Shown: one piece after another, positions 1-27,907 of the stretch
Layout: every line of letters starts with the position of its first letter
How positions within the stretch are numbered: the first letter of the stretch is position 1
IMG/VR virus record: IMGVR_UViG_3300020045_001898
Location: 1 to 27,907 of that record
Reading direction: 5' to 3' (one strand)
DNA: 27,907 nt
Source: a virus
Taxonomy: Duplodnaviria; Caudoviricetes
The notes under the pieces: model-generated
Databases searched by the model: none
The model's input: the letters and a program-made list of their open reading frames with translations, nothing else
Told to the model about the DNA's origin: nothing
Translations under genes and position numbers: made by a program

Positions 1-119
1 AACACTACGGTTTTTCCGCCGCCTGTAGGAAGTACGGCCAGAACGCTTAAATATGCGTTTCGGAAACAGGTACGAATCCCTGCGACCATTGTATTCTGAT
101 AATGGCGTAATGTAATCAT
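1..119 (-). CDS. SF2 (DEAD/DEAH-like) helicase, N-terminal part; runs off the window
   Basis: Manual translation from ATG at 119: MITLRHYQNTMVAGIRTCFRNAYLSVLAVLPTGGGKTVV, with a Q-motif (LRHYQ) and Walker A (PTGGGKT). Not in the ORF track. Confidence 0.85.
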   Translation of the reverse strand, partial: MITLRHYQNTMVAGIRTCFRNAYLSVLAVLPTGGGKTVV

Positions 120-133
120 GTGGATTTTTTTGG

Positions 134-313
134 TTATAGTTTTTCTATACTTTTCGCTACTTTGTTCCAGAACGCACGGTCCAGTCCGTCAACAGTGTCT
201 AGTCTTAAGATTTCAACACACGTAATAAACGCCGCCTGTTTTGCCTGTTCCCAGGTAAGGAATCCCAGAAACGACAGAACTAACGCCATGGCTTTTATTT
301 CGTGTTCTTCCAT
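134..313 (-). CDS. Small phage hypothetical protein (59 aa)
   Basis: Manual translation MEEHEIKAMALVLSFLGFLTWEQAKQAAFITCVEILRLDTVDGLDRAFWNKVAKSIEKL*. TAATG coupling to the upstream HTH gene; fills the gap to the helicase. Confidence 0.75.
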   Translation of the reverse strand: MEEHEIKAMALVLSFLGFLTWEQAKQAAFITCVEILRLDTVDGLDRAFWNKVAKSIEKL

Positions 314-591: not shown

Positions 592-599
592 TACGTTTG
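592..599 (+). promoter_or_regulatory. Rightward promoter -7 box (TACGTTTG)
   Basis: Exact TAnnTTTG in an AT-rich intergenic region, 30 nt upstream of ATG 630. Confidence 0.7.
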
Positions 600-629
600 T
601 CCCACTATTAATTCATAAACATTTTTAAA

Positions 630-839
630 ATGGCAAAAGAAGAAAAAGAACAGTTTTACACTGGCGAAGGTGTAGACGTTACAGAACGAATCGCGACTGG
701 AAAAACCAGGTTTTTTAAATCGCTAACTTTAGCGCAGTGGTGGGCGGATTTGCGAAAGATCCTACAGATACGAAGTTTTCGACGGTCCGACACCTGGAAA
801 ACGACAGTTAATCGGTTACGGAATCCCTCGATAATATGA
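630..839 (+). CDS. Small phage hypothetical protein, possibly frameshifted near 755
   Basis: Good start context. The +1 frame from 757 (RSYRYEVFDGPTPGKRQLIGYGIPR*, stop 832-834) looks more protein-like than the in-frame tail. Confidence 0.6.
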   Translation: MAKEEKEQFYTGEGVDVTERIATGKTRFFKSLTLAQWWADLRKILQIRSFRRSDTWKTTVNRLRNPSII

Positions 840-1615
840 TTCCCAATTATCACACCGACACGTCCGCGATATCTAAATCCGGTCTGGATAAAATAGACAT
901 TTCACCTTTAGACTATTGGTGGAAGTATCTACGTCCAGAACGCGAACCATACACGCCAGATAAACAGACGTTATTCGACGACGCCCTACGAATGGCCGTT
1001 TTCGAACCTAAATTATTCGCCCACAAATACGTTAAACTTCCGAACCTCAACAGATCGACCACCATAGGTAAATCCGAATTCGCTTCGTTAACAGCTGCAG
1101 CACAGGCAAACGATCAGTTACTTCTGCCTGCTTCTGATTTCGACGCTATTCGAAAAATGCAGGAAGCGATTTTAAAACACCCAACGGCGAAAATTTTGTG
1201 TACTGCAGGATTAATCGGAACGCCTGTTCGATTCGAAGAAATGAACACAGGCGCGCCTATTAAGTTTCGTCCGCACTGGATACACAACGGCGGAATAGTT
1301 GTCCATTTAATGTCGACTAAAGACGCTTCGTTCGGTAATTTTCAGAAGGAAGCCGGTAATTTTAGACACGATAAAAAAGCCGTTATCCAAATGGAAGGAA
1401 TGAAACTGGACGGAATGGCTTTTATAAACATCGAACCCGAAGCACCTTATAAAATTGGAATCCGTCACATGGACGAACGTTCGCTGTCTTTTGGACGTGA
1501 AACGGTAGTTCGTAACTGCGAAACTTATTTATCGTGCCTAGCGTCTGGAAAATGGCCTGGATTCGACGAACGAATACTTCCCGCAAGTTTGCCGGAATGG
1601 ATTTTTAAACAGTAA
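836..1615 (+). CDS. PD-(D/E)XK nuclease-like protein (RecE/exonuclease VIII, DUF3799-like), catalytic residues degenerate
   Basis: Family hallmarks YH..AISKSGLD..SP..YW, HP.A..L, K.RPxW, TKDAS..F, E...PY, C..SG.WPG..I...LP.W. PD is PH and DLK is HLM. Confidence 0.85.
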   Translation: MIPNYHTDTSAISKSGLDKIDISPLDYWWKYLRPEREPYTPDKQTLFDDALRMAVFEPKLFAHKYVKLPNLNRSTTIGKSEFASLTAAAQANDQLLLPASDFDAIRKMQEAILKHPTAKILCTAGLIGTPVRFEEMNTGAPIKFRPHWIHNGGIVVHLMSTKDASFGNFQKEAGNFRHDKKAVIQMEGMKLDGMAFINIEPEAPYKIGIRHMDERSLSFGRETVVRNCETYLSCLASGKWPGFDERILPASLPEWIFKQ

Positions 1616-1618
1616 ACC

Positions 1619-2821
1619 ATGAATCTATCAAACAAACAGGAATTATTTTATACCGAAGCGTTAGCAGGCGAAAATATTTTTCTAACAGGTAAAGCCGGAA
1701 CTGGTAAATCACACGTTACTAAAGTAGTTATTAAGGCATTTATAAACGCAGGAAAAAACGTAGCTGCTTTAGCACCTACAGGAATAGCTGCGAATAATAT
1801 CGGCGGCGCGACGTTACATTCTACATTTTCCCTTCCGCCGTTTGGTGTATTGGATTTTAAATCATGCAATTTCGTAAAACCTACGAAACGCCTGGTCCTA
1901 AATGCTATCGACGTTATAGTTATCGACGAAGTTTCTATGTTACGTCCGGATATCCTGGACGGCATTAACTGGACGTTAATTAAAAACGGCTGTCGAAGTT
2001 TGAACGAAATACAAATTATCTTTATTGGTGACATGAAACAGTTAGGAATAGTCGCCGACGATAACATGGTTTCGGTTATGCTTCAGAAATACGGTGGCTG
2101 TGAATGGTGGAAGGCAGAAATTTACGAAAAATTAAACGTCGTAAATATTGAACTAGACGAAGTCCTTCGACAGTCGGATCCGGAATTTATAGAAAATCTT
2201 AACCTGGTGCGCGACGGTAAAAAAGGCAAAGACGATTATTTCCGTAAATTCGTAAAAGAAGATCCTGCAGGAATAATTCTGGCACCACATAACGCCACTG
2301 TACAACGTTACAACATGGAAGGCCTTAATTCAGTTGAAGGAAAAACTTTCACTTTCGAAGCTACCGTGGAAGGAAATATTAAGGCCGCAGATTTTAACCT
2401 GGAACCTACAATTAACGTAAAACACGGCTGTAAAATAATGTACCTGGCGAACAGCAAAAACAATAATCTTTTTAACGGAACTTTAGGAACGTTTCACGTT
2501 TCGGACGAAGGAACAGAAGACGAACGATATTTTATCCAGGTCGGCGACGTAAAAAACGCTTTAGAAGTGCGAAAATTTACGAAAAAGGAATATGTATTAA
2601 ATCGCGAAGAAAATCGACTGGAACTGGAAGAAATAGGCAGTATCGAACAGTTACCGATAAAACTAGCTTACGCGCTTACGATTCATAAATCGCAGGGACT
2701 TACTTTAGACGAAGTCACGGTCGATTTAACGCTTCCGTGTTTCGCAGAAGGACAAATGTATATCGCGTTAAGTCGCGTCACTGCACCGACAGGATTAACA
2801 ATAATAGCAAAACGAAAATAA
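1619..2821 (+). CDS. Pif1-family SF1B DNA helicase
   Basis: FLTGKAGTGKS, APTGIAA, TLHS, IDEVSM, GDMKQL, LRQSD, NGTLG, PIKLAYALTIHKSQGLT, GQMYIALSR. Confidence 0.92.
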   Translation: MNLSNKQELFYTEALAGENIFLTGKAGTGKSHVTKVVIKAFINAGKNVAALAPTGIAANNIGGATLHSTFSLPPFGVLDFKSCNFVKPTKRLVLNAIDVIVIDEVSMLRPDILDGINWTLIKNGCRSLNEIQIIFIGDMKQLGIVADDNMVSVMLQKYGGCEWWKAEIYEKLNVVNIELDEVLRQSDPEFIENLNLVRDGKKGKDDYFRKFVKEDPAGIILAPHNATVQRYNMEGLNSVEGKTFTFEATVEGNIKAADFNLEPTINVKHGCKIMYLANSKNNNLFNGTLGTFHVSDEGTEDERYFIQVGDVKNALEVRKFTKKEYVLNREENRLELEEIGSIEQLPIKLAYALTIHKSQGLTLDEVTVDLTLPCFAEGQMYIALSRVTAPTGLTIIAKRK

Positions 2822-2851
2822 TTTAATTCCGGAGGGATACGCAAAAAAATT

Positions 2852-3343
2852 ATGTCTAGAATAACCAAAGAAATCGCAGAACAAGTCGCTAAAAAAATGA
2901 CTGAAGACAAAGAAAACGAAATAATTAAAATCAATAAGCAATTAACTAACACCGTTACTGATTTTGTACTTAAAACAATTCCTGAAGAAGTAATCGAATT
3001 TAACGAAAAATTTAAAGGTTATATCGATATGCGTTCTAACGTTAGACTTATTGGAAACGGTTGGAACTACGAAAATCTTTCTTTATCCAAATCGATTCCG
3101 CTTAAAAAACAAGATTTTATTCCCAATGTCAAACAGTCAGATATTCTTAAAAAATTAAAAGAAGAAGTTTCGGATAAAGAAAAACACCTGCAACAGCTTA
3201 GAAGAAAAATAGGTATCGCGCTTTATTCTTTACGTACATATTCAAAAGTCGCTATTGAATTTCCAGAAGCTGTTCCGTTTTTACCTAAAAAACAGGAAAC
3301 TAGTCTAGCAATAAATATTAACGACATTAGAGCAGAATTATAA
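2852..3343 (+). CDS. Nmad5-like protein (nucleotide modification-associated domain 5)
   Basis: N-terminal RITKEIAE and C-terminal LYSLRTYSKVAIEFPEAVPFLP resemble the family pattern; recalled, not searched. Confidence 0.6.
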   Translation: MSRITKEIAEQVAKKMTEDKENEIIKINKQLTNTVTDFVLKTIPEEVIEFNEKFKGYIDMRSNVRLIGNGWNYENLSLSKSIPLKKQDFIPNVKQSDILKKLKEEVSDKEKHLQQLRRKIGIALYSLRTYSKVAIEFPEAVPFLPKKQETSLAININDIRAEL

Positions 3344-3386
3344 AAAAAAAATAATCCTTAATACTGGCGAGTTTACGCAAAAAAAT

Positions 3387-3791
3387 ATGTCATTAGAAAT
3401 AAAAGGAAAAGTCAAAGTAGTAGGGTCTGCAATACAGGTTACTTCTTCCTACGAAAAACAGGAACTAGTAATCACAACGGACGAACAGTATCCACAGACT
3501 ATCGCTATTGAATTCGCGCAGGGAAAATGCGCTAATGAACTGGCGCAGCTTAAACCTGGCGATAACGTGAACGTTTCGATTAATATAGGCGGTCGCGAAT
3601 GGGTGAATCCACAAGGCGAAACGAAATATTTTAATTCGATTAAAGGGTGGCGCGTTTATACAATAATGCCGGCACATACTGCAGCACCTGCACCACAGGC
3701 ACAGGCACCCGCGCAAGCTGCACCACAGACGCAAGGATTCCAGGCGCAGGCAGATTTCAAAGAAGAAGAACACGACGATTTACCGTTTTAA
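3387..3791 (+). CDS. DUF3127-family single-stranded DNA-binding protein
   Basis: KQELVITTDEQYPQTI, GREW..PQG..KYFNSIKGW, Ala/Pro/Gln linker and acidic DDLPF tail. Confidence 0.88.
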   Translation: MSLEIKGKVKVVGSAIQVTSSYEKQELVITTDEQYPQTIAIEFAQGKCANELAQLKPGDNVNVSINIGGREWVNPQGETKYFNSIKGWRVYTIMPAHTAAPAPQAQAPAQAAPQTQGFQAQADFKEEEHDDLPF

Positions 3792-3809
3792 TTTTAAAAA
3801 AAATAAATT

Positions 3810-4580
3810 ATGTCAGAATTAGCAGTAATAAACGAATCGCAGTCAGTGTCTGTATTCAACAGTAAAGAAGCATTCGAACAGGCGCAGCGAATGGTCGTTC
3901 CTTTGTCACAGTCGACAATGGTTCCAGACGCCTATAAAAATAATTTACCTAATTGTATGGTAGCCATGGAAATGTCACACAGAATCGGTAAATCAGTCCT
4001 GGAAGTTATGCAGAACATGCAGATCGTAAAAGGGAATACCGGGTGGAAATCAGAATATGTTATTATGTCGATTAACAGATCCGGAATATTTAAAGACGCG
4101 CTGCATTTTGTATTTTCCGAAGACAGACAGTCATGTTACGCGACAGCCGTAAGGAAATCAAATAAACAGGAACTTCGCGGAACTGCAGTTTCTATGGAAC
4201 TAGCACGCGCCGAAGGGTGGCTAGAAAAAAACGGTTCTAAATGGAAAACTATGCCGGAACAAATGCTTATGTATCGCGCAGCTACTTTTTTCTGCCGTGT
4301 GTTTTGTCCGGAAGTTTTAGCAGGCGTTCAAACGGCCGACGAAATAGTCGATATCGGACACCTGGAAGTCGTAGGATCTAACCAGTCGATTTCTAAATTT
4401 AACGAAGCTGTTACTGCAGAAGTAGTCGAAGAAAATTTCGCGCAGGAAACCAGTTTCGAAGACGTACAGGAAACTGAAGAAACCAACGAAATAGAAGTCA
4501 AGGACGCGGAAGTTATAGAACAGGAACAGCCTGCAATGAATAACGCCGAAGCATATAAAGACGAAGACGACGATTTTTAA
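3810..4580 (+). CDS. RecT/Bet-like single-strand annealing recombinase
   Basis: S.MVP.AY....NC.VA.EM..R, VMQNM..V.G...W, A..EGW..K.GSKW..MPEQML.YRAA.FF.R..CPEV..G; acidic DDDF tail. Confidence 0.8.
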   Translation: MSELAVINESQSVSVFNSKEAFEQAQRMVVPLSQSTMVPDAYKNNLPNCMVAMEMSHRIGKSVLEVMQNMQIVKGNTGWKSEYVIMSINRSGIFKDALHFVFSEDRQSCYATAVRKSNKQELRGTAVSMELARAEGWLEKNGSKWKTMPEQMLMYRAATFFCRVFCPEVLAGVQTADEIVDIGHLEVVGSNQSISKFNEAVTAEVVEENFAQETSFEDVQETEETNEIEVKDAEVIEQEQPAMNNAEAYKDEDDDF

Positions 4581-4626
4581 TAAATCTTAAACCTCGCGAA
4601 GTATAGGTAAATCGCTAATTATATTT

Positions 4627-4860
4627 ATGGGAACACCATTCAAACACGAACTAGGAATCGAAGCAAAAGATATTATTACGGGATTTTCAGGAATCATAAT
4701 GTCCAGAAGTGAACATTTAACAGGCTGTAATGTTTATAGTATTTCACCGAAAACACTTCAGGAAGGAAAACTGGCAGAAACGCAGTGGTTTGACGAATCC
4801 AGGATCGAAAAGATAGGCGAAGGCGAAAACGATCCGACTTCTGCTTCTGACAGAAGATAA
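4627..4860 (+). CDS. Phage hypothetical protein (77 aa)
   Basis: LG..AKD.ITGFSGII..R.EHLTGC..Y...P....G......WFDE.RI is a pattern typical of a small phage protein family. Confidence 0.75.
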   Translation: MGTPFKHELGIEAKDIITGFSGIIMSRSEHLTGCNVYSISPKTLQEGKLAETQWFDESRIEKIGEGENDPTSASDRR

Positions 4861-4901
4861 ATATTTTCGAAAAATAACTATAAAATAAAAAACAAATTTA
4901 T

Positions 4902-4974
4902 TATATTTACAGCCTCATGGTTTTGGGTTTTTTGGTTAATAGTCATTAAAGGCGGTCTTCGGATCGCTTTTTTT
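4902..4974 (+). ncRNA. Candidate small RNA (~60 nt) with its own promoter box and intrinsic terminator
   Basis: TATATTTA (-7-like, 4902-4909), then CAGCCTCATGGTTTTGGGTTTTTTGGTTAATAGTCATT, then a GGCGGTC-TTCG-GATCGC-T7 hairpin. No credible CDS. Confidence 0.5.
4948..4974 (+). terminator. Rho-independent terminator
   Basis: AAAGGCGGTC-TTCG-GATCGCTTTTTTT: C(UUCG)G loop followed by a U-tract. Confidence 0.85.
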
Positions 4975-4990
4975 GGTTAATATACCCAAT

Positions 4991-5020
4991 AAAAAAAACA
5001 GCTAACGTATAGCTGTTTTT
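4991..5020 (-). terminator. Rho-independent (bidirectional) terminator
   Basis: AAAAAAAACAGCTA-ACGTA-TAGCTGTTTTT at the point where the two operons converge. Confidence 0.8.
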
Positions 5021-5026
5021 ATTAAT

Positions 5027-5321
5027 TTAATCGTCCATACAGAATCCAAAATTTCTGCGGTGCATGTGCATTTCTTTAATTGTAGGATTTCGCGTCGTTT
5101 CGAAGCACTTATGGTAATATTTAACTTCTGCCAGTGTGGTTTCTGTAATATCCCAATTTAACGCGAAATCTGTATTTTCCGAAGCCTGTTTAGGGTGCGT
5201 TCGTGCTAATGGCATAGGGATTAAACATTTCTTTTACTGGTTTTGAAACCTCGCTTTTTTGTGTCGCATTAGCGAATGATAAAGCACCGAACAGGATAAT
5301 TCCTAAAAATAATTTTTTCAT
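5027..5321 (-). CDS. Secreted small protein split across two frames (43 aa; 97 aa with a +1 shift at CCC-TAA)
   Basis: ATG 5321 gives the signal peptide MKKLFLGIILFGALSFANA, ending GCA CCC TAA (5198-5190). The +1 frame continues KQASENTDF...FCMDD* to 5027. Confidence 0.6.
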
Positions 5322-5378
5322 TTTGATAAAATTTAAGTTATTAATAATGTGCAATATAATAAATAAATCAATACGCAC

Positions 5379-21016: not shown

Positions 21017-23077
21017 TTAAGTCAATGCAGCACCGTTATTTCGGTAAACACCGCGCCAGTCGATTGCTTTTGCAGCAAATACCATTCTGGCTTTAATTTC
21101 GATCCCGTCGATATTGAAACCTTCGCGCTGTTCGATAAATAATTCTTCTTCGCCGTCCAAAAACGCATATTCGACAGTGTCGATTTGGTTTGGATCTGCA
21201 ATAAGGAACCACTGTAAACCTGTGATATTACTATCTACTACAACCTGCAACCCTAAAGACTGCGCCAAAGGCTGTCCCATTTGACTGTTAGGTGTGTAAT
21301 TTGCAGAAGTTAATTTCATAGCGCGCGTAGCGTTTTTCGGTCCTACGACTAAAAATTTCGGCGTTACGTTGATAAGATCACCTGCAGCGTCTTTTTGCTG
21401 CATAAATAACTGATAAGCTACGTCCAAACTTCCTTCGGTTAATTCAGTACCACCTGCAGTCTGATTTGCAGCTGTTCCTGTAAAGTTACCGTGGTCCGCA
21501 TGGAATAATGCTTTTCCGTCACCCATAGCCGCGAATCCGTTAGCTAAAATAGTATCATATACTAATTTAGTCTGCTTAATAGCAGCTTTAGAAGCGAAAG
21601 ACTGTGGAATTCTGTTGAAAGCCGATAAATCGTCGTTAACAATAGCTTCCCAAGTTACGCCGATAATACGACCGAACTTCCCTAGTTTATAGGTTTCGCC
21701 CGCTTCGCTTAAAGTAGCGTATTTGTATTCTTCACCTTCTTTTACAGCTAGTAAATCGCCTAAAATTTCAGACAAACGTACTCTGGAAATCGGTCTGAAA
21801 TCTGCAATACTTGCACGTCTGGCCCATACCATAAACGTTCTAGGTTGCTGCGCGTATTGTGCTAGCAAAGTACGGTTAACCGTATCCAATAATAATAAAG
21901 GAAAATCGGTAGTGTGGTGTAATCCACGAACTTTTCCACCAAGTGCAGCTGTAGCGATTTCGCGGGAAGTCATTCCACGCGTATTCGTTCCTGCCAGGAT
22001 AAGTGCTTCTTCCGCAAAACGTAAGAAACTCATTCCTTTGTAATCCGAAGCTGCTCTAGCGTTTTCTTCACCCATAGCAGTAGCCGCAGACGGATTAACT
22101 CTAATAGCTAACGCGTTAGCCATTGCAGCGCGTTTTTTATCTGCCGCTGTGTTGTCCTGTCCTGCGTTTGGTTTCGCATTTAATGGATTTCCTTTTTCCC
22201 ATTCTTCTAACGCGCGCTGTCCTGCGATAGCTGCGTCTGTAACGGTTTCGTCTTCGATAAGGGCATCTGCGAACGCGTCCGGAAGTTGTAAGGCGCGGAC
22301 GTGCTTTCTGATCCCTGAAATTCTTTCGCGTTCAGCTTTCGCTGCGGCCGAACGGGTTTTTTCGGCTTCCGCCCTTTTTTCTTCTTCAGTCATTGTACTG
22401 TTTTTATTGTTATTATTATTTTCGGTTTGAATTTCGGTAGTTTCTTCTGCTTCTTCCGTAGTTTCTTCGGTTGCAGGTGTTTCTTCTGTAGTTGTAACTT
22501 CTGGCGTAACGTCTTCGATAACGACCTGGTGTGCGGGTTCGTTTTCGTTATTTCTTACACGTGAATTAATGTCGGCCTGTACAGGCGTGAACGAAATTTC
22601 TGTGGCTTCCCATTTTGTAGCGCGATATTGTGGACGTTTGTCTTCTGATCGTGTTACCTGGTATTCAGGAACATTATAACCAACAGAAACACCTGTCACT
22701 ATTTTGTCCCTTACTTTTTCCATTAATTTCGTATCGTCTTCGGTGTTACCGAATCTGATTTTCGCAATACCTGCGTTATTTTCAAATCGAGCAGATTCCA
22801 CAACACCCACAACAGTATCGGCTGTTTTTCCGTATCGATTATGATTATCTAGTGCAGGCGCACCATTATTCAAACGAGTTAAGTCGCCGTTTTCTGGCAT
22901 ACATACCAGAATTTCGTCGACCATTTCGTATGCGTCCCAGTCGAACGTACGGACCGCAGTTTCTGTGGCGAAAATAACTTCGACAGTTCTGTCGGTTTCG
23001 TTAAAACTGTCGGCGACAAATTCTGCGCGGGTTCGCTGCGTAGGAATTTGTTTTGTGATTTTTTTCTTATCTGACAT
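21017..23077 (-). CDS. Prohead protease-scaffold-major capsid fusion protein
   Basis: HK97-type protease (LDNH, GVSVGY, EISFTPVQAD), acidic linker, then capsid domain (TTDFP.LL, DFR, GEEYKY, GR...VT.EAIVNDDL, ALFHADHGN, DWRG). Confidence 0.95.
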   Translation of the reverse strand: MSDKKKITKQIPTQRTRAEFVADSFNETDRTVEVIFATETAVRTFDWDAYEMVDEILVCMPENGDLTRLNNGAPALDNHNRYGKTADTVVGVVESARFENNAGIAKIRFGNTEDDTKLMEKVRDKIVTGVSVGYNVPEYQVTRSEDKRPQYRATKWEATEISFTPVQADINSRVRNNENEPAHQVVIEDVTPEVTTTEETPATEETTEEAEETTEIQTENNNNNKNSTMTEEEKRAEAEKTRSAAAKAERERISGIRKHVRALQLPDAFADALIEDETVTDAAIAGQRALEEWEKGNPLNAKPNAGQDNTAADKKRAAMANALAIRVNPSAATAMGEENARAASDYKGMSFLRFAEEALILAGTNTRGMTSREIATAALGGKVRGLHHTTDFPLLLLDTVNRTLLAQYAQQPRTFMVWARRASIADFRPISRVRLSEILGDLLAVKEGEEYKYATLSEAGETYKLGKFGRIIGVTWEAIVNDDLSAFNRIPQSFASKAAIKQTKLVYDTILANGFAAMGDGKALFHADHGNFTGTAANQTAGGTELTEGSLDVAYQLFMQQKDAAGDLINVTPKFLVVGPKNATRAMKLTSANYTPNSQMGQPLAQSLGLQVVVDSNITGLQWFLIADPNQIDTVEYAFLDGEEELFIEQREGFNIDGIEIKARMVFAAKAIDWRGVYRNNGAALT

Positions 23078-27047: not shown

Positions 27048-27709
27048 TCAAATTTTCGGTTTTGGATATCGGATAACAAATTCAAAGTTTCGTTAATTTC
27101 TTTTTCGAAAAACCGATCTGCTTCCTGTCTATTTTTTGCGCCCATTATTTTATCCAGGCATCGGTAACGAAGTCCTTCGATAGCTGTTCGGATTTCCTGG
27201 CCGAAGGCAAAATTAACGGCGTTTACTTTTGTGATAGGAACCATTTGTCCGCGTTTTTCCATATACGCCAGACGTAGAATTTTAACTTTCAAAATAGCCG
27301 CCTGACGTTCCGCTTCTGGTTTTAAAACAGTGTCCGAAGTTTCTTCCGGATCTTCGTCGTCTATATTTTCCAGATCGTCTTTTGATATTGAAGGAAGTTT
27401 TTCGTCTAGCACTTCCTGGACTACCTGGTCCGCAGTTTGTGCCGTAGCACGTTCTGGCTTCGCGACGCGTTTCGGCTTAGGTGGCTGTGGCGAATTTTTA
27501 ACTTCTAGAACAGCTGCAGGTTTTCCGTCCTGGAATTCTGGAAGGATAGCTTTGCCCCATTCTGAAGAAGCTATTATCGGAATATATTTTTTGTCCGCCG
27601 TCAATCCATTAACAATCGAACCACGGTCGACGGCCTTACGAACTGCGCCTTCTGACTGTCCGACCATTTTAGCGAACTGGCGACCAGATACTGGTATTTT
27701 TAAATCCAT
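27044..27709 (-). CDS. Terminase small subunit (Nu1-like)
   Basis: N-terminal HTH (SGRQFAKMVGQSEGAVRKA...G.I), C-terminal L...E.RG.MV; ATGA overlap with TerL. Start is 27709 or 27730. Confidence 0.8.
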   Translation of the reverse strand: MDLKIPVSGRQFAKMVGQSEGAVRKAVDRGSIVNGLTADKKYIPIIASSEWGKAILPEFQDGKPAAVLEVKNSPQPPKPKRVAKPERATAQTADQVVQEVLDEKLPSISKDDLENIDDEDPEETSDTVLKPEAERQAAILKVKILRLAYMEKRGQMVPITKVNAVNFAFGQEIRTAIEGLRYRCLDKIMGAKNRQEADRFFEKEINETLNLLSDIQNRKFE

Positions 27710-27714
27710 AAAAA

Positions 27715-27774
27715 GTGCGCACAGTGACATAATGACGTGCGCACCAAATGTAGTAAATTTTTCTTTGTGCGTAC
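27715..27774. repeat. Three GTGCG(C/T)AC palindromic boxes upstream of terS
   Basis: GTGCGCAC 27715-27722, GTGCGCAC 27737-27744, GTGCGTAC 27767-27774. Confidence 0.7.
27745..27752 (-). promoter_or_regulatory. -7 box TACATTTG upstream of terS
   Basis: Exact TAnnTTTG between boxes 2 and 3. Confidence 0.55.
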
Positions 27775-27776
27775 TT

Positions 27777-27907
27777 AAAAATCACAAAACAAATTCCTAC
27801 GCAGCGAACCCGCGCAGAATTTGTCGCCGACAGTTTTAACGAAACCGACAGAACTGTCGAAGTTATTTTCGCCACAGAAACTGCGGTCCGTACGTTCGAC
27901 TGGGACG
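27777..27907 (+). repeat. Perfect 131-bp inverted copy of 22933-23063 (5' part of the capsid gene)
   Basis: Base-by-base reverse-complement match to the window end; encodes KITKQIPTQRTRAEF...RTFDWD with no start codon. Confidence 0.95.

Follow-up and report, generated by a model that had tools for sequence, protein, structure and literature searches.

A candidate FopS-like small RNA in a Bacteroidota phage, with predicted targets among the phage's own replication genes

The closest described counterpart of the locus studied here is FopS, a paralogous family of small RNAs of Bacteroides thetaiotaomicron (PMC11697453). In the available text of that work, FopS represses susC mRNAs, and FopS-10 pairs at the susC start region and blocks translation, with compensatory mutations as the proof; the protein RbpB acts against FopS, whose 5' part it binds, and a FopS sequence was noted in one Caudovirales phage (PMC11697453). 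GibS, also from Bacteroides, is described as having an unstructured 5' seed that anneals across the start codons of mRNAs devoid of a Shine-Dalgarno sequence (PMC7366714). For phages, the small RNAs VpdS (VP882), PreS (lambda), sar (P22) and OOP (lambda) have been reviewed, with PreS raising host dnaN and sar blocking the initiation of a phage mRNA (PMC12197685). VpdS and PreS need Hfq (PMC12197685), a protein that Bacteroides do not have according to the available text of PMC11697453. Little is known of the timing of gene expression in Bacteroidota phages; the characterised phage small RNAs in the available part of the review come from other phyla, and hosts named 'Bacteroid-' have 0 occurrences in that part (PMC12197685).

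The unit behind the recombination operon

The window, that is, the whole stretch of DNA that was analysed, is a 27.9-kb phage fragment (64% complete). The genes for terminase, portal, capsid-protease, tail, holin and endolysin lie on its minus strand. The host is probably a Flavobacterium, because the one named relative of the endolysin belongs to Flavobacterium sp. 25HG05S-40 (66%) and the best matches of RecT among cultured phages are Flavobacterium phages. The SF2 helicase gene, on the minus strand, starts at 119 and is truncated at the contig end; over its 39 codons it shows 100% identity to the beginning of a 516-aa ResIII/Helicase_C protein from the relative L004. At the very end of the contig a 131-nt perfect inverted copy (27777-27907 and 22933-23063) gives rise to a false ORF (27669-27905) and is likely an assembly or amplification chimera. 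The features relevant to this work are:

115..140, minus strand: leader and AUG of the SF2 helicase gene, the best-supported predicted target (duplex -21.7 kcal/mol, rank 1/39)
592..632, plus strand: rightward promoter TACGTTTG (592-599) and leader of the first rightward gene, a weak predicted target in the window
630..4860, plus strand: rightward recombination operon with exonuclease VIII, Pif1/Dda-like helicase, SSB and RecT (PHROGs)
1614..1622, plus strand: Pif1 start with a 9-nt complement to the seed, unsupported as a target
4902..4909, plus strand: promoter-like -7 box TATATTTA (Bacteroidota consensus TAnnTTTG; final base A, not G)
4914..4947, plus strand: predicted 5' single-stranded seed, about 35 nt, U/G-rich and mostly unpaired (predicted start 4914 +/- 1-2)
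4948..4977, plus strand: intrinsic terminator, UUCG hairpin and U tract, the first plus-strand terminator after the rightward operon
4994..5020, both strands: separate two-way terminator that ends the convergent lysis/structural operon (terminator calls and folding)

The element thus lies between the rightward operon, which ends at 4860, and the two-way terminator. The initial annotation had proposed here a small RNA directed against helicase start regions, and all the strings on which it was built are found at their positions (4902-4909, 4924-4943, 121-140, 4915-4923 versus 1614-1622, and 4970-4981). The UUCG terminator that it placed after the U/G-rich stretch is called by the scanner (4948-4971), and folding of 4912-4975 gives -16.1 kcal/mol (z -2.8), with an opening cost of the seed of 3.4-3.7 kcal/mol. 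The recurrence at 4970-4981 turned out to be incidental, being the U tract of the terminator followed by GGTTAAT; L004 and L005 share no more than the GGTT after the U tract, and 13 further relatives have a different sequence. In F. johnsoniae, promoters have a box-to-start spacing of 4-5 nt and a near-invariant final G, according to the available text of PMC6847099. The start of the predicted RNA is placed near 4914 by this spacing rule, and the box is counted as non-consensus because the final G is replaced, a point against it as a promoter. The proposed -7-like box is one base off the consensus; it is conserved in 15/15 relatives.

The unit stands behind the operon in 14/14 relatives with a RecT of at least 60% identity (L004-L017, from 80 loci), and its box, U-rich stretch and terminator are also present in L738 and L742; the contig of L741 stops short of it. 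The box reads TA(T/C)TTTAC in 15/15 aligned relatives, the sole variation being at one 'n' position, while the DNA just upstream varies and the sequences flanking the unit differ between relatives. A hairpin of -8.3 to -14.7 kcal/mol occurs in 15/15 copies with differing stems. RNAalifold on the 15 phage copies is weak (-2.5 kcal/mol) because the stems are out of register, and no covariation claim is based on it. No conserved peptide was found across 16 copies of the unit. Taken together, the element is likely a non-coding RNA gene of about 62 nt. A short leaderless peptide of 10 codons, read from the ATG at 4917, is a barely credible alternative: this ATG lies 3 nt past the predicted start and leaderless-like genes occur in this phage, but the frame has 10 aa in the window, 30 or more in L004 and 2 in L005, and clade B, L014 and L017 have no such ATG.

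The same TATATTTAC box precedes the late gene gpW in the window, L004, L011 and L013, and lies 4 nt upstream of the gpV ATG in L013 and of the gpU ATG in L017. In the window, TAnnTTTG lies exactly 4 nt upstream of the ATG in the capsid-protease, gpU-like and gpV-like genes (23077, 15445 and 13206, minus strand), as would be the case for leaderless starts. This arrangement is kept for gpV in L004, L010, L011, L013 and L017, and for the capsid gene only in L004. Given that the capsid gene is leaderless-like only in the window and L004, an escape of late genes through leaderless starts was dropped as a general claim. On the minus strand at 5190-5323, a small ORF with a signal-peptide-like start and no PHROGs family lies behind the endolysin. 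The relative G001 (L523-L525, 93% complete) carries three DNA methyltransferases and a primase, and no integrase was found among 22 of its proteins that were scanned; for the remainder of its 53 ORFs, types were assigned from the map or by similarity to genes of the window.

Similar units in phages and in Flavobacterium chromosomes

The best Rfam match of the 86-nt stretch 4900-4985 is FopS (RF04319; E 0.43), with the seed aligned to positions 8-41 of the model. There is no gathering-level Rfam match in the window, GibS included, and neither FopS nor another convincing match in 9 related loci. Over 151 Bacteroidota genomes, RF04319 itself gives 4 matches above the cut-off. A model of our own (R1) contains no base pairs, and its matches (73 of 141) were not counted as members because they are mostly weak and include gene starts.

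The exact core has 1 match only in viral contigs, within a coding region. The unit pattern has 0 matches in metagenomes, where RecT led to a single contig, close but short, and no record among cultured phages spans 80% of the unit. The stretch examined in the cultured Flavobacterium phage FCL-2 has no clear copy; behind gp38 of this phage (L609:4290-4380) a long U-rich stretch is followed by a terminator hairpin, which could be a related 3' RNA. For seed-only patterns, box and terminator occur together in 0/120 genome matches and 0/119 viral matches, and many of these matches are real gene starts on the opposite strand. The seed is complementary to a common Bacteroidota start motif, given that 58/120 genome matches open a long frame, and therefore a single match proves little.

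A pattern of box, TCAT and TTGGTTA gave 33 matches in viral contigs, with a terminator directly after it in 19/33 (13/26 distinct). In the control, boxes without the seed pattern were followed by a terminator in 8/55, and 6 of those 8 are orthologous to the window unit. Many of the phages with these matches are unrelated. Unrelated phages with this design are L475 (2963-3040), L495, L467, L474, L478, L482, L483 and L491; the unit of L475 is convergent with an integrase-like gene (assigned by eye), and those of L478 and L482 have the endolysin side on one flank and small early-type genes on the other. When the 8 unrelated cassette phages were scored on their own starts, a clear excess was obtained only in G513 and G518, which share an identical seed, and the top match of G514 is a self-overlap.

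Of 151 Flavobacterium genomes, 11 contain a 21-mer of this type. In four of them it has 3-6 copies, all with a hairpin and a U tract behind them, and six single matches with one mismatch have no terminator. The copies (G054:C1 at 127376, 668886, 958094, 1246160, 2309626 and 2491950; also in G079, G052, G059 and G135) have an identical 21-nt seed and varied terminator stems, with two types of upstream sequence, a -7-like box in some and an AGAAT-containing motif in others. No Rfam family matched the 3 copies that were scanned, and the multicopy unit is likely an undescribed FopS-like family. With the box-plus-seed pattern, 201 Flavobacteriaceae gave 3 matches versus 5 control matches.

Predicted pairing with replication-gene starts across lineages

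The seed of each phage was scored against the starts of that same phage (-30 to +15). The host null consists of 695 starts, called by a simple longest-ORF rule in two Flavobacterium genomes (0.8 Mb), which are not necessarily those of the host. In the window, the helicase start ranks first, and only 2/1000 shuffled seeds pair with it as well. Of the host starts, 4/695 (a fraction of 0.006) do as well without correction; once accessibility is taken into account, the helicase start scores -15.9, the next best start of the window -11.3, and 0/348 host starts are as good. As the best of 39 in the window alone, the helicase match has P of only about 0.1-0.2; the weight for this target rests on the relatives. 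The initial annotation placed the pairing just upstream of the helicase AUG; the leader match holds, and the predicted duplex also takes in the AUG itself through the UCAUG part of the seed. Its other named target, the Pif1 start, is not supported beyond chance, with 74/1000 shuffles as good, a corrected rank of 17/39 and a family p of 0.079. The first rightward gene start in the window has -14.7 kcal/mol (rank 11/39).

Between the HTH gene and the helicase, a 59-aa ORF (134-313) is present in the window and missing from L004, L005 and the contigs of runs X1 and X3; a relative of it lies behind Pif1 in L014. Its insertion swaps the upstream part of the helicase leader, and the seed match is still kept.

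The seeds differ strongly between related phages, by lineage. Against own starts, the helicase start ranks 1/39 in the window, 2/53 in L004, 5/21 in L005, 1/41 in L014 and 5/46 in L017, and in these five the own RNA is the best of 11 on the own helicase start. L742 (G522) carries a new seed and was located after the targets had been fixed. Its helicase start ranks 1/49 and pairs better than all host starts (0/695 as good), with the own seed the best of 16; the primase start (GTG) has a host fraction of 0.024, and the match to the first rightward gene fails (31/49). Clade B, in which six phages have the helicase gene, ranks it at 16/37, 6/21, 15/20, 26/50, 4/19 and 28/59. The best starts of this clade are the primase (1/37 in L006, 2/50 in L010) and the first rightward gene, which is rank 1 in L008, L010, L011 and L012 and fails in L013 (15/59). 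L015 and L016 are without helicase and first-gene starts and were left out of those tests. The proposed change of RNA and target together is therefore found for the helicase leader, except in most of clade B.

At the level of lineages, among 32 gene families, the lowest p values belong to the primase (5.6e-5) and the SF2 helicase (4.9e-4); the 'first rightward gene' class, chosen post hoc, has p 6e-5. Pif1, SSB, exonuclease and HTH starts were rejected as targets for showing no matched change with the seed, and the RecT start scores only in clade B. Good scores are also obtained for late genes (tail chaperone p 0.0035, a 145-aa gene of the baseplate region p 0.008), and therefore targeting of early genes only is not clean. 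In several lineages, L742 and L738 among them, the own seed pairs well with the start of the tail assembly chaperone gene (17720 on the minus strand in the window, and its orthologues), which makes it a possible late target.

When the RNAs of four lineages were swapped, with the post-hoc class left out, the true pairing was 1/24 in 8/8 sets, 1/24 being the floor of the four-lineage test; with five lineages it ranked 1, 2, 1 and 1 of 120. Accessibility correction retained the matching pattern across relatives. There are only 4-6 lineages, and the swap ranks overstate independence because the lineages are related to each other, with B1 and B2 forming one clade in the trees. The clade of the window itself (clade A) has no genome-wide excess (top-3 z -2.27 versus -2.13 expected).

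These results bear on whether the unit is only the 3' UTR and terminator of the early operon, with its likeness to start sites stemming from an old inverted leader copy or from low-complexity bias and no regulatory pairing at all. The unit does lie directly behind the operon and supplies its terminator, its box is non-consensus, U/G-rich RNA readily pairs with A/C-rich leaders, and the best-of-39 result in the window alone is non-significant. Nonetheless, the box is kept despite variable upstream DNA, terminators follow box and seed in 13 of the 26 distinct viral matches and follow boxes without the seed pattern far less often, the match is lost when natural seeds are swapped, and the lineage found later met the prediction. 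This origin is thus distinctly unlikely.

Alternatively, the RNA may be a real FopS-like regulator with mainly host mRNAs as targets, such as those of TonB-dependent transporters, which are maybe phage receptors, the phage leaders merely sharing the start style of the host. Repression of susC by FopS sets a precedent for this, and the seed complement is a start motif in many genomes. In Flavobacterium, 17/27 matches outside the small RNA units open frames of at least 77 aa, and 2 of the 3 such frames scanned are TonB-dependent receptors behind a seed-complementary leader; without correction, a few host starts equal the helicase start. The top 16 of the 695 host starts for the window seed are mixed, in a comparison that covers 0.8 Mb of two genomes. 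This alternative is unlikely, given that the signal falls on few replication genes and not on the structural genes, which are strongly expressed (in 6/8 phages the late genes have a mean z near 0), and that seeds diverge between related phages yet follow their own helicase or primase leaders.

The unit could also be a decoy or mimic that sequesters an RbpB-like host protein or competes with a host FopS-like family, or its pairing could raise translation. RbpB binds and opposes FopS, some Flavobacterium genomes have 3-6 copies of a similar unit, and lambda PreS raises dnaN. A decoy, however, would have no need to track phage leaders, and an RRM-1 protein was found in just 2/5 Flavobacterium genomes and in none of the 3 multicopy ones (genomes that may be incomplete); for activation, the helicase leader is already open (2.0 kcal/mol), leaving little to activate. 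Such roles are very unlikely.

Proposed function and comparison with known systems

The favoured reading, which we hold to be probable, is that the unit is a phage FopS-like small RNA that likely represses the phage's own replication genes. The anti-initiation role against the SF2 helicase start that had been proposed for it is supported by the conservation of the unit, its FopS-like layout and the matched change of seed and leader. The RNA would be transcribed from its own box, starting at 4914, or it would be the 3'-terminal part of the early operon mRNA. The scanner called no plus-strand terminator between 630 and 4948, and this mRNA would stop at the 4948 terminator and would contain the seed. 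The unpaired 5' half would then pair with the helicase mRNA across its A-rich leader and AUG, and the duplex would keep ribosomes from loading, in the way that FopS acts on host mRNAs. Adenines at -3, -6, -12 and -13 promote initiation in Flavobacterium, according to the available text of PMC6847099, and repression is expected because the duplex would cover them. The primase and the first rightward gene would be second-tier targets, with RecT in one clade, and build-up of the RNA would damp the early replication proteins. That the RNA is made late is a guess, weakly suggested by the occurrence of this box in front of head and tail genes.

More tentatively, and with somewhat less than an even chance of being right, Bacteroidota phages may widely carry a FopS-type switch in which one RNA acts on many leaders and closes the replication phase without Hfq, its seed being adapted, lineage by lineage, to the leaders of the phage's helicase, primase and first early gene, with the same design forming an undescribed multicopy family in Flavobacterium chromosomes. 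Neither a Bacteroidota phage small RNA acting on the phage's own genes nor this multicopy family was found in the literature searched, mainly titles and openings of abstracts. If true, a self-targeting FopS-like RNA would be the anti-start-site design of the host reused for phage control. The natural pairs of seed and leader from several lineages are ready-made compensatory variants, usable in F. johnsoniae without a phage isolate, and the 62-nt unit may double as a programmable knock-down scaffold for Flavobacterium. The particular contribution of this locus is that a named target could be tested in a lineage found afterwards, L742.

Among the known systems, cis-antisense RNAs and type I antitoxins overlap their target gene on the opposite strand, with full complementarity. 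The unit was rejected as a member of this class, being intergenic (4861-5026) with no conserved ORF on the opposite strand. With VpdS, PreS, sar and OOP it shares the nature of a phage-encoded small RNA predicted to tune phage development by base pairing; it differs from VpdS and PreS in their dependence on Hfq, from PreS in the action of the latter on host dnaN, and from OOP, which is cis-encoded. Like GibS, it has an unstructured 5' seed predicted to pair across a start codon; unlike GibS, which has 145 nt, two seeds, middle hairpins and a PM2 promoter, it has about 62 predicted nt and one hairpin.

The comparison with FopS is the closest. Differences are a score of 18.4 bits, below the cut-off of 56 bits; a single copy in the window phage (64% complete), G001 and G002, whereas FopS has many paralogues per genome; a phage-borne location with a seed that varies between relatives, UCAUG being missing from the seeds of clade B, L014, L017 and L742; and best predicted targets that are phage replication genes and not susC. 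As in FopS, a promoter-like box, an unpaired 5' seed and a terminator follow in that order, in agreement with the true FopS copies examined. Compared with the R1/R1' seed of FopS, UCAUGGU and GGUUAAUA in the window seed match the consensus of the model, with a differing middle. In line with the lack of a small ORF in FopS, the predicted RNA has no conserved peptide; it has a length in the range of 60-70 nt and is predicted to pair over a start region.
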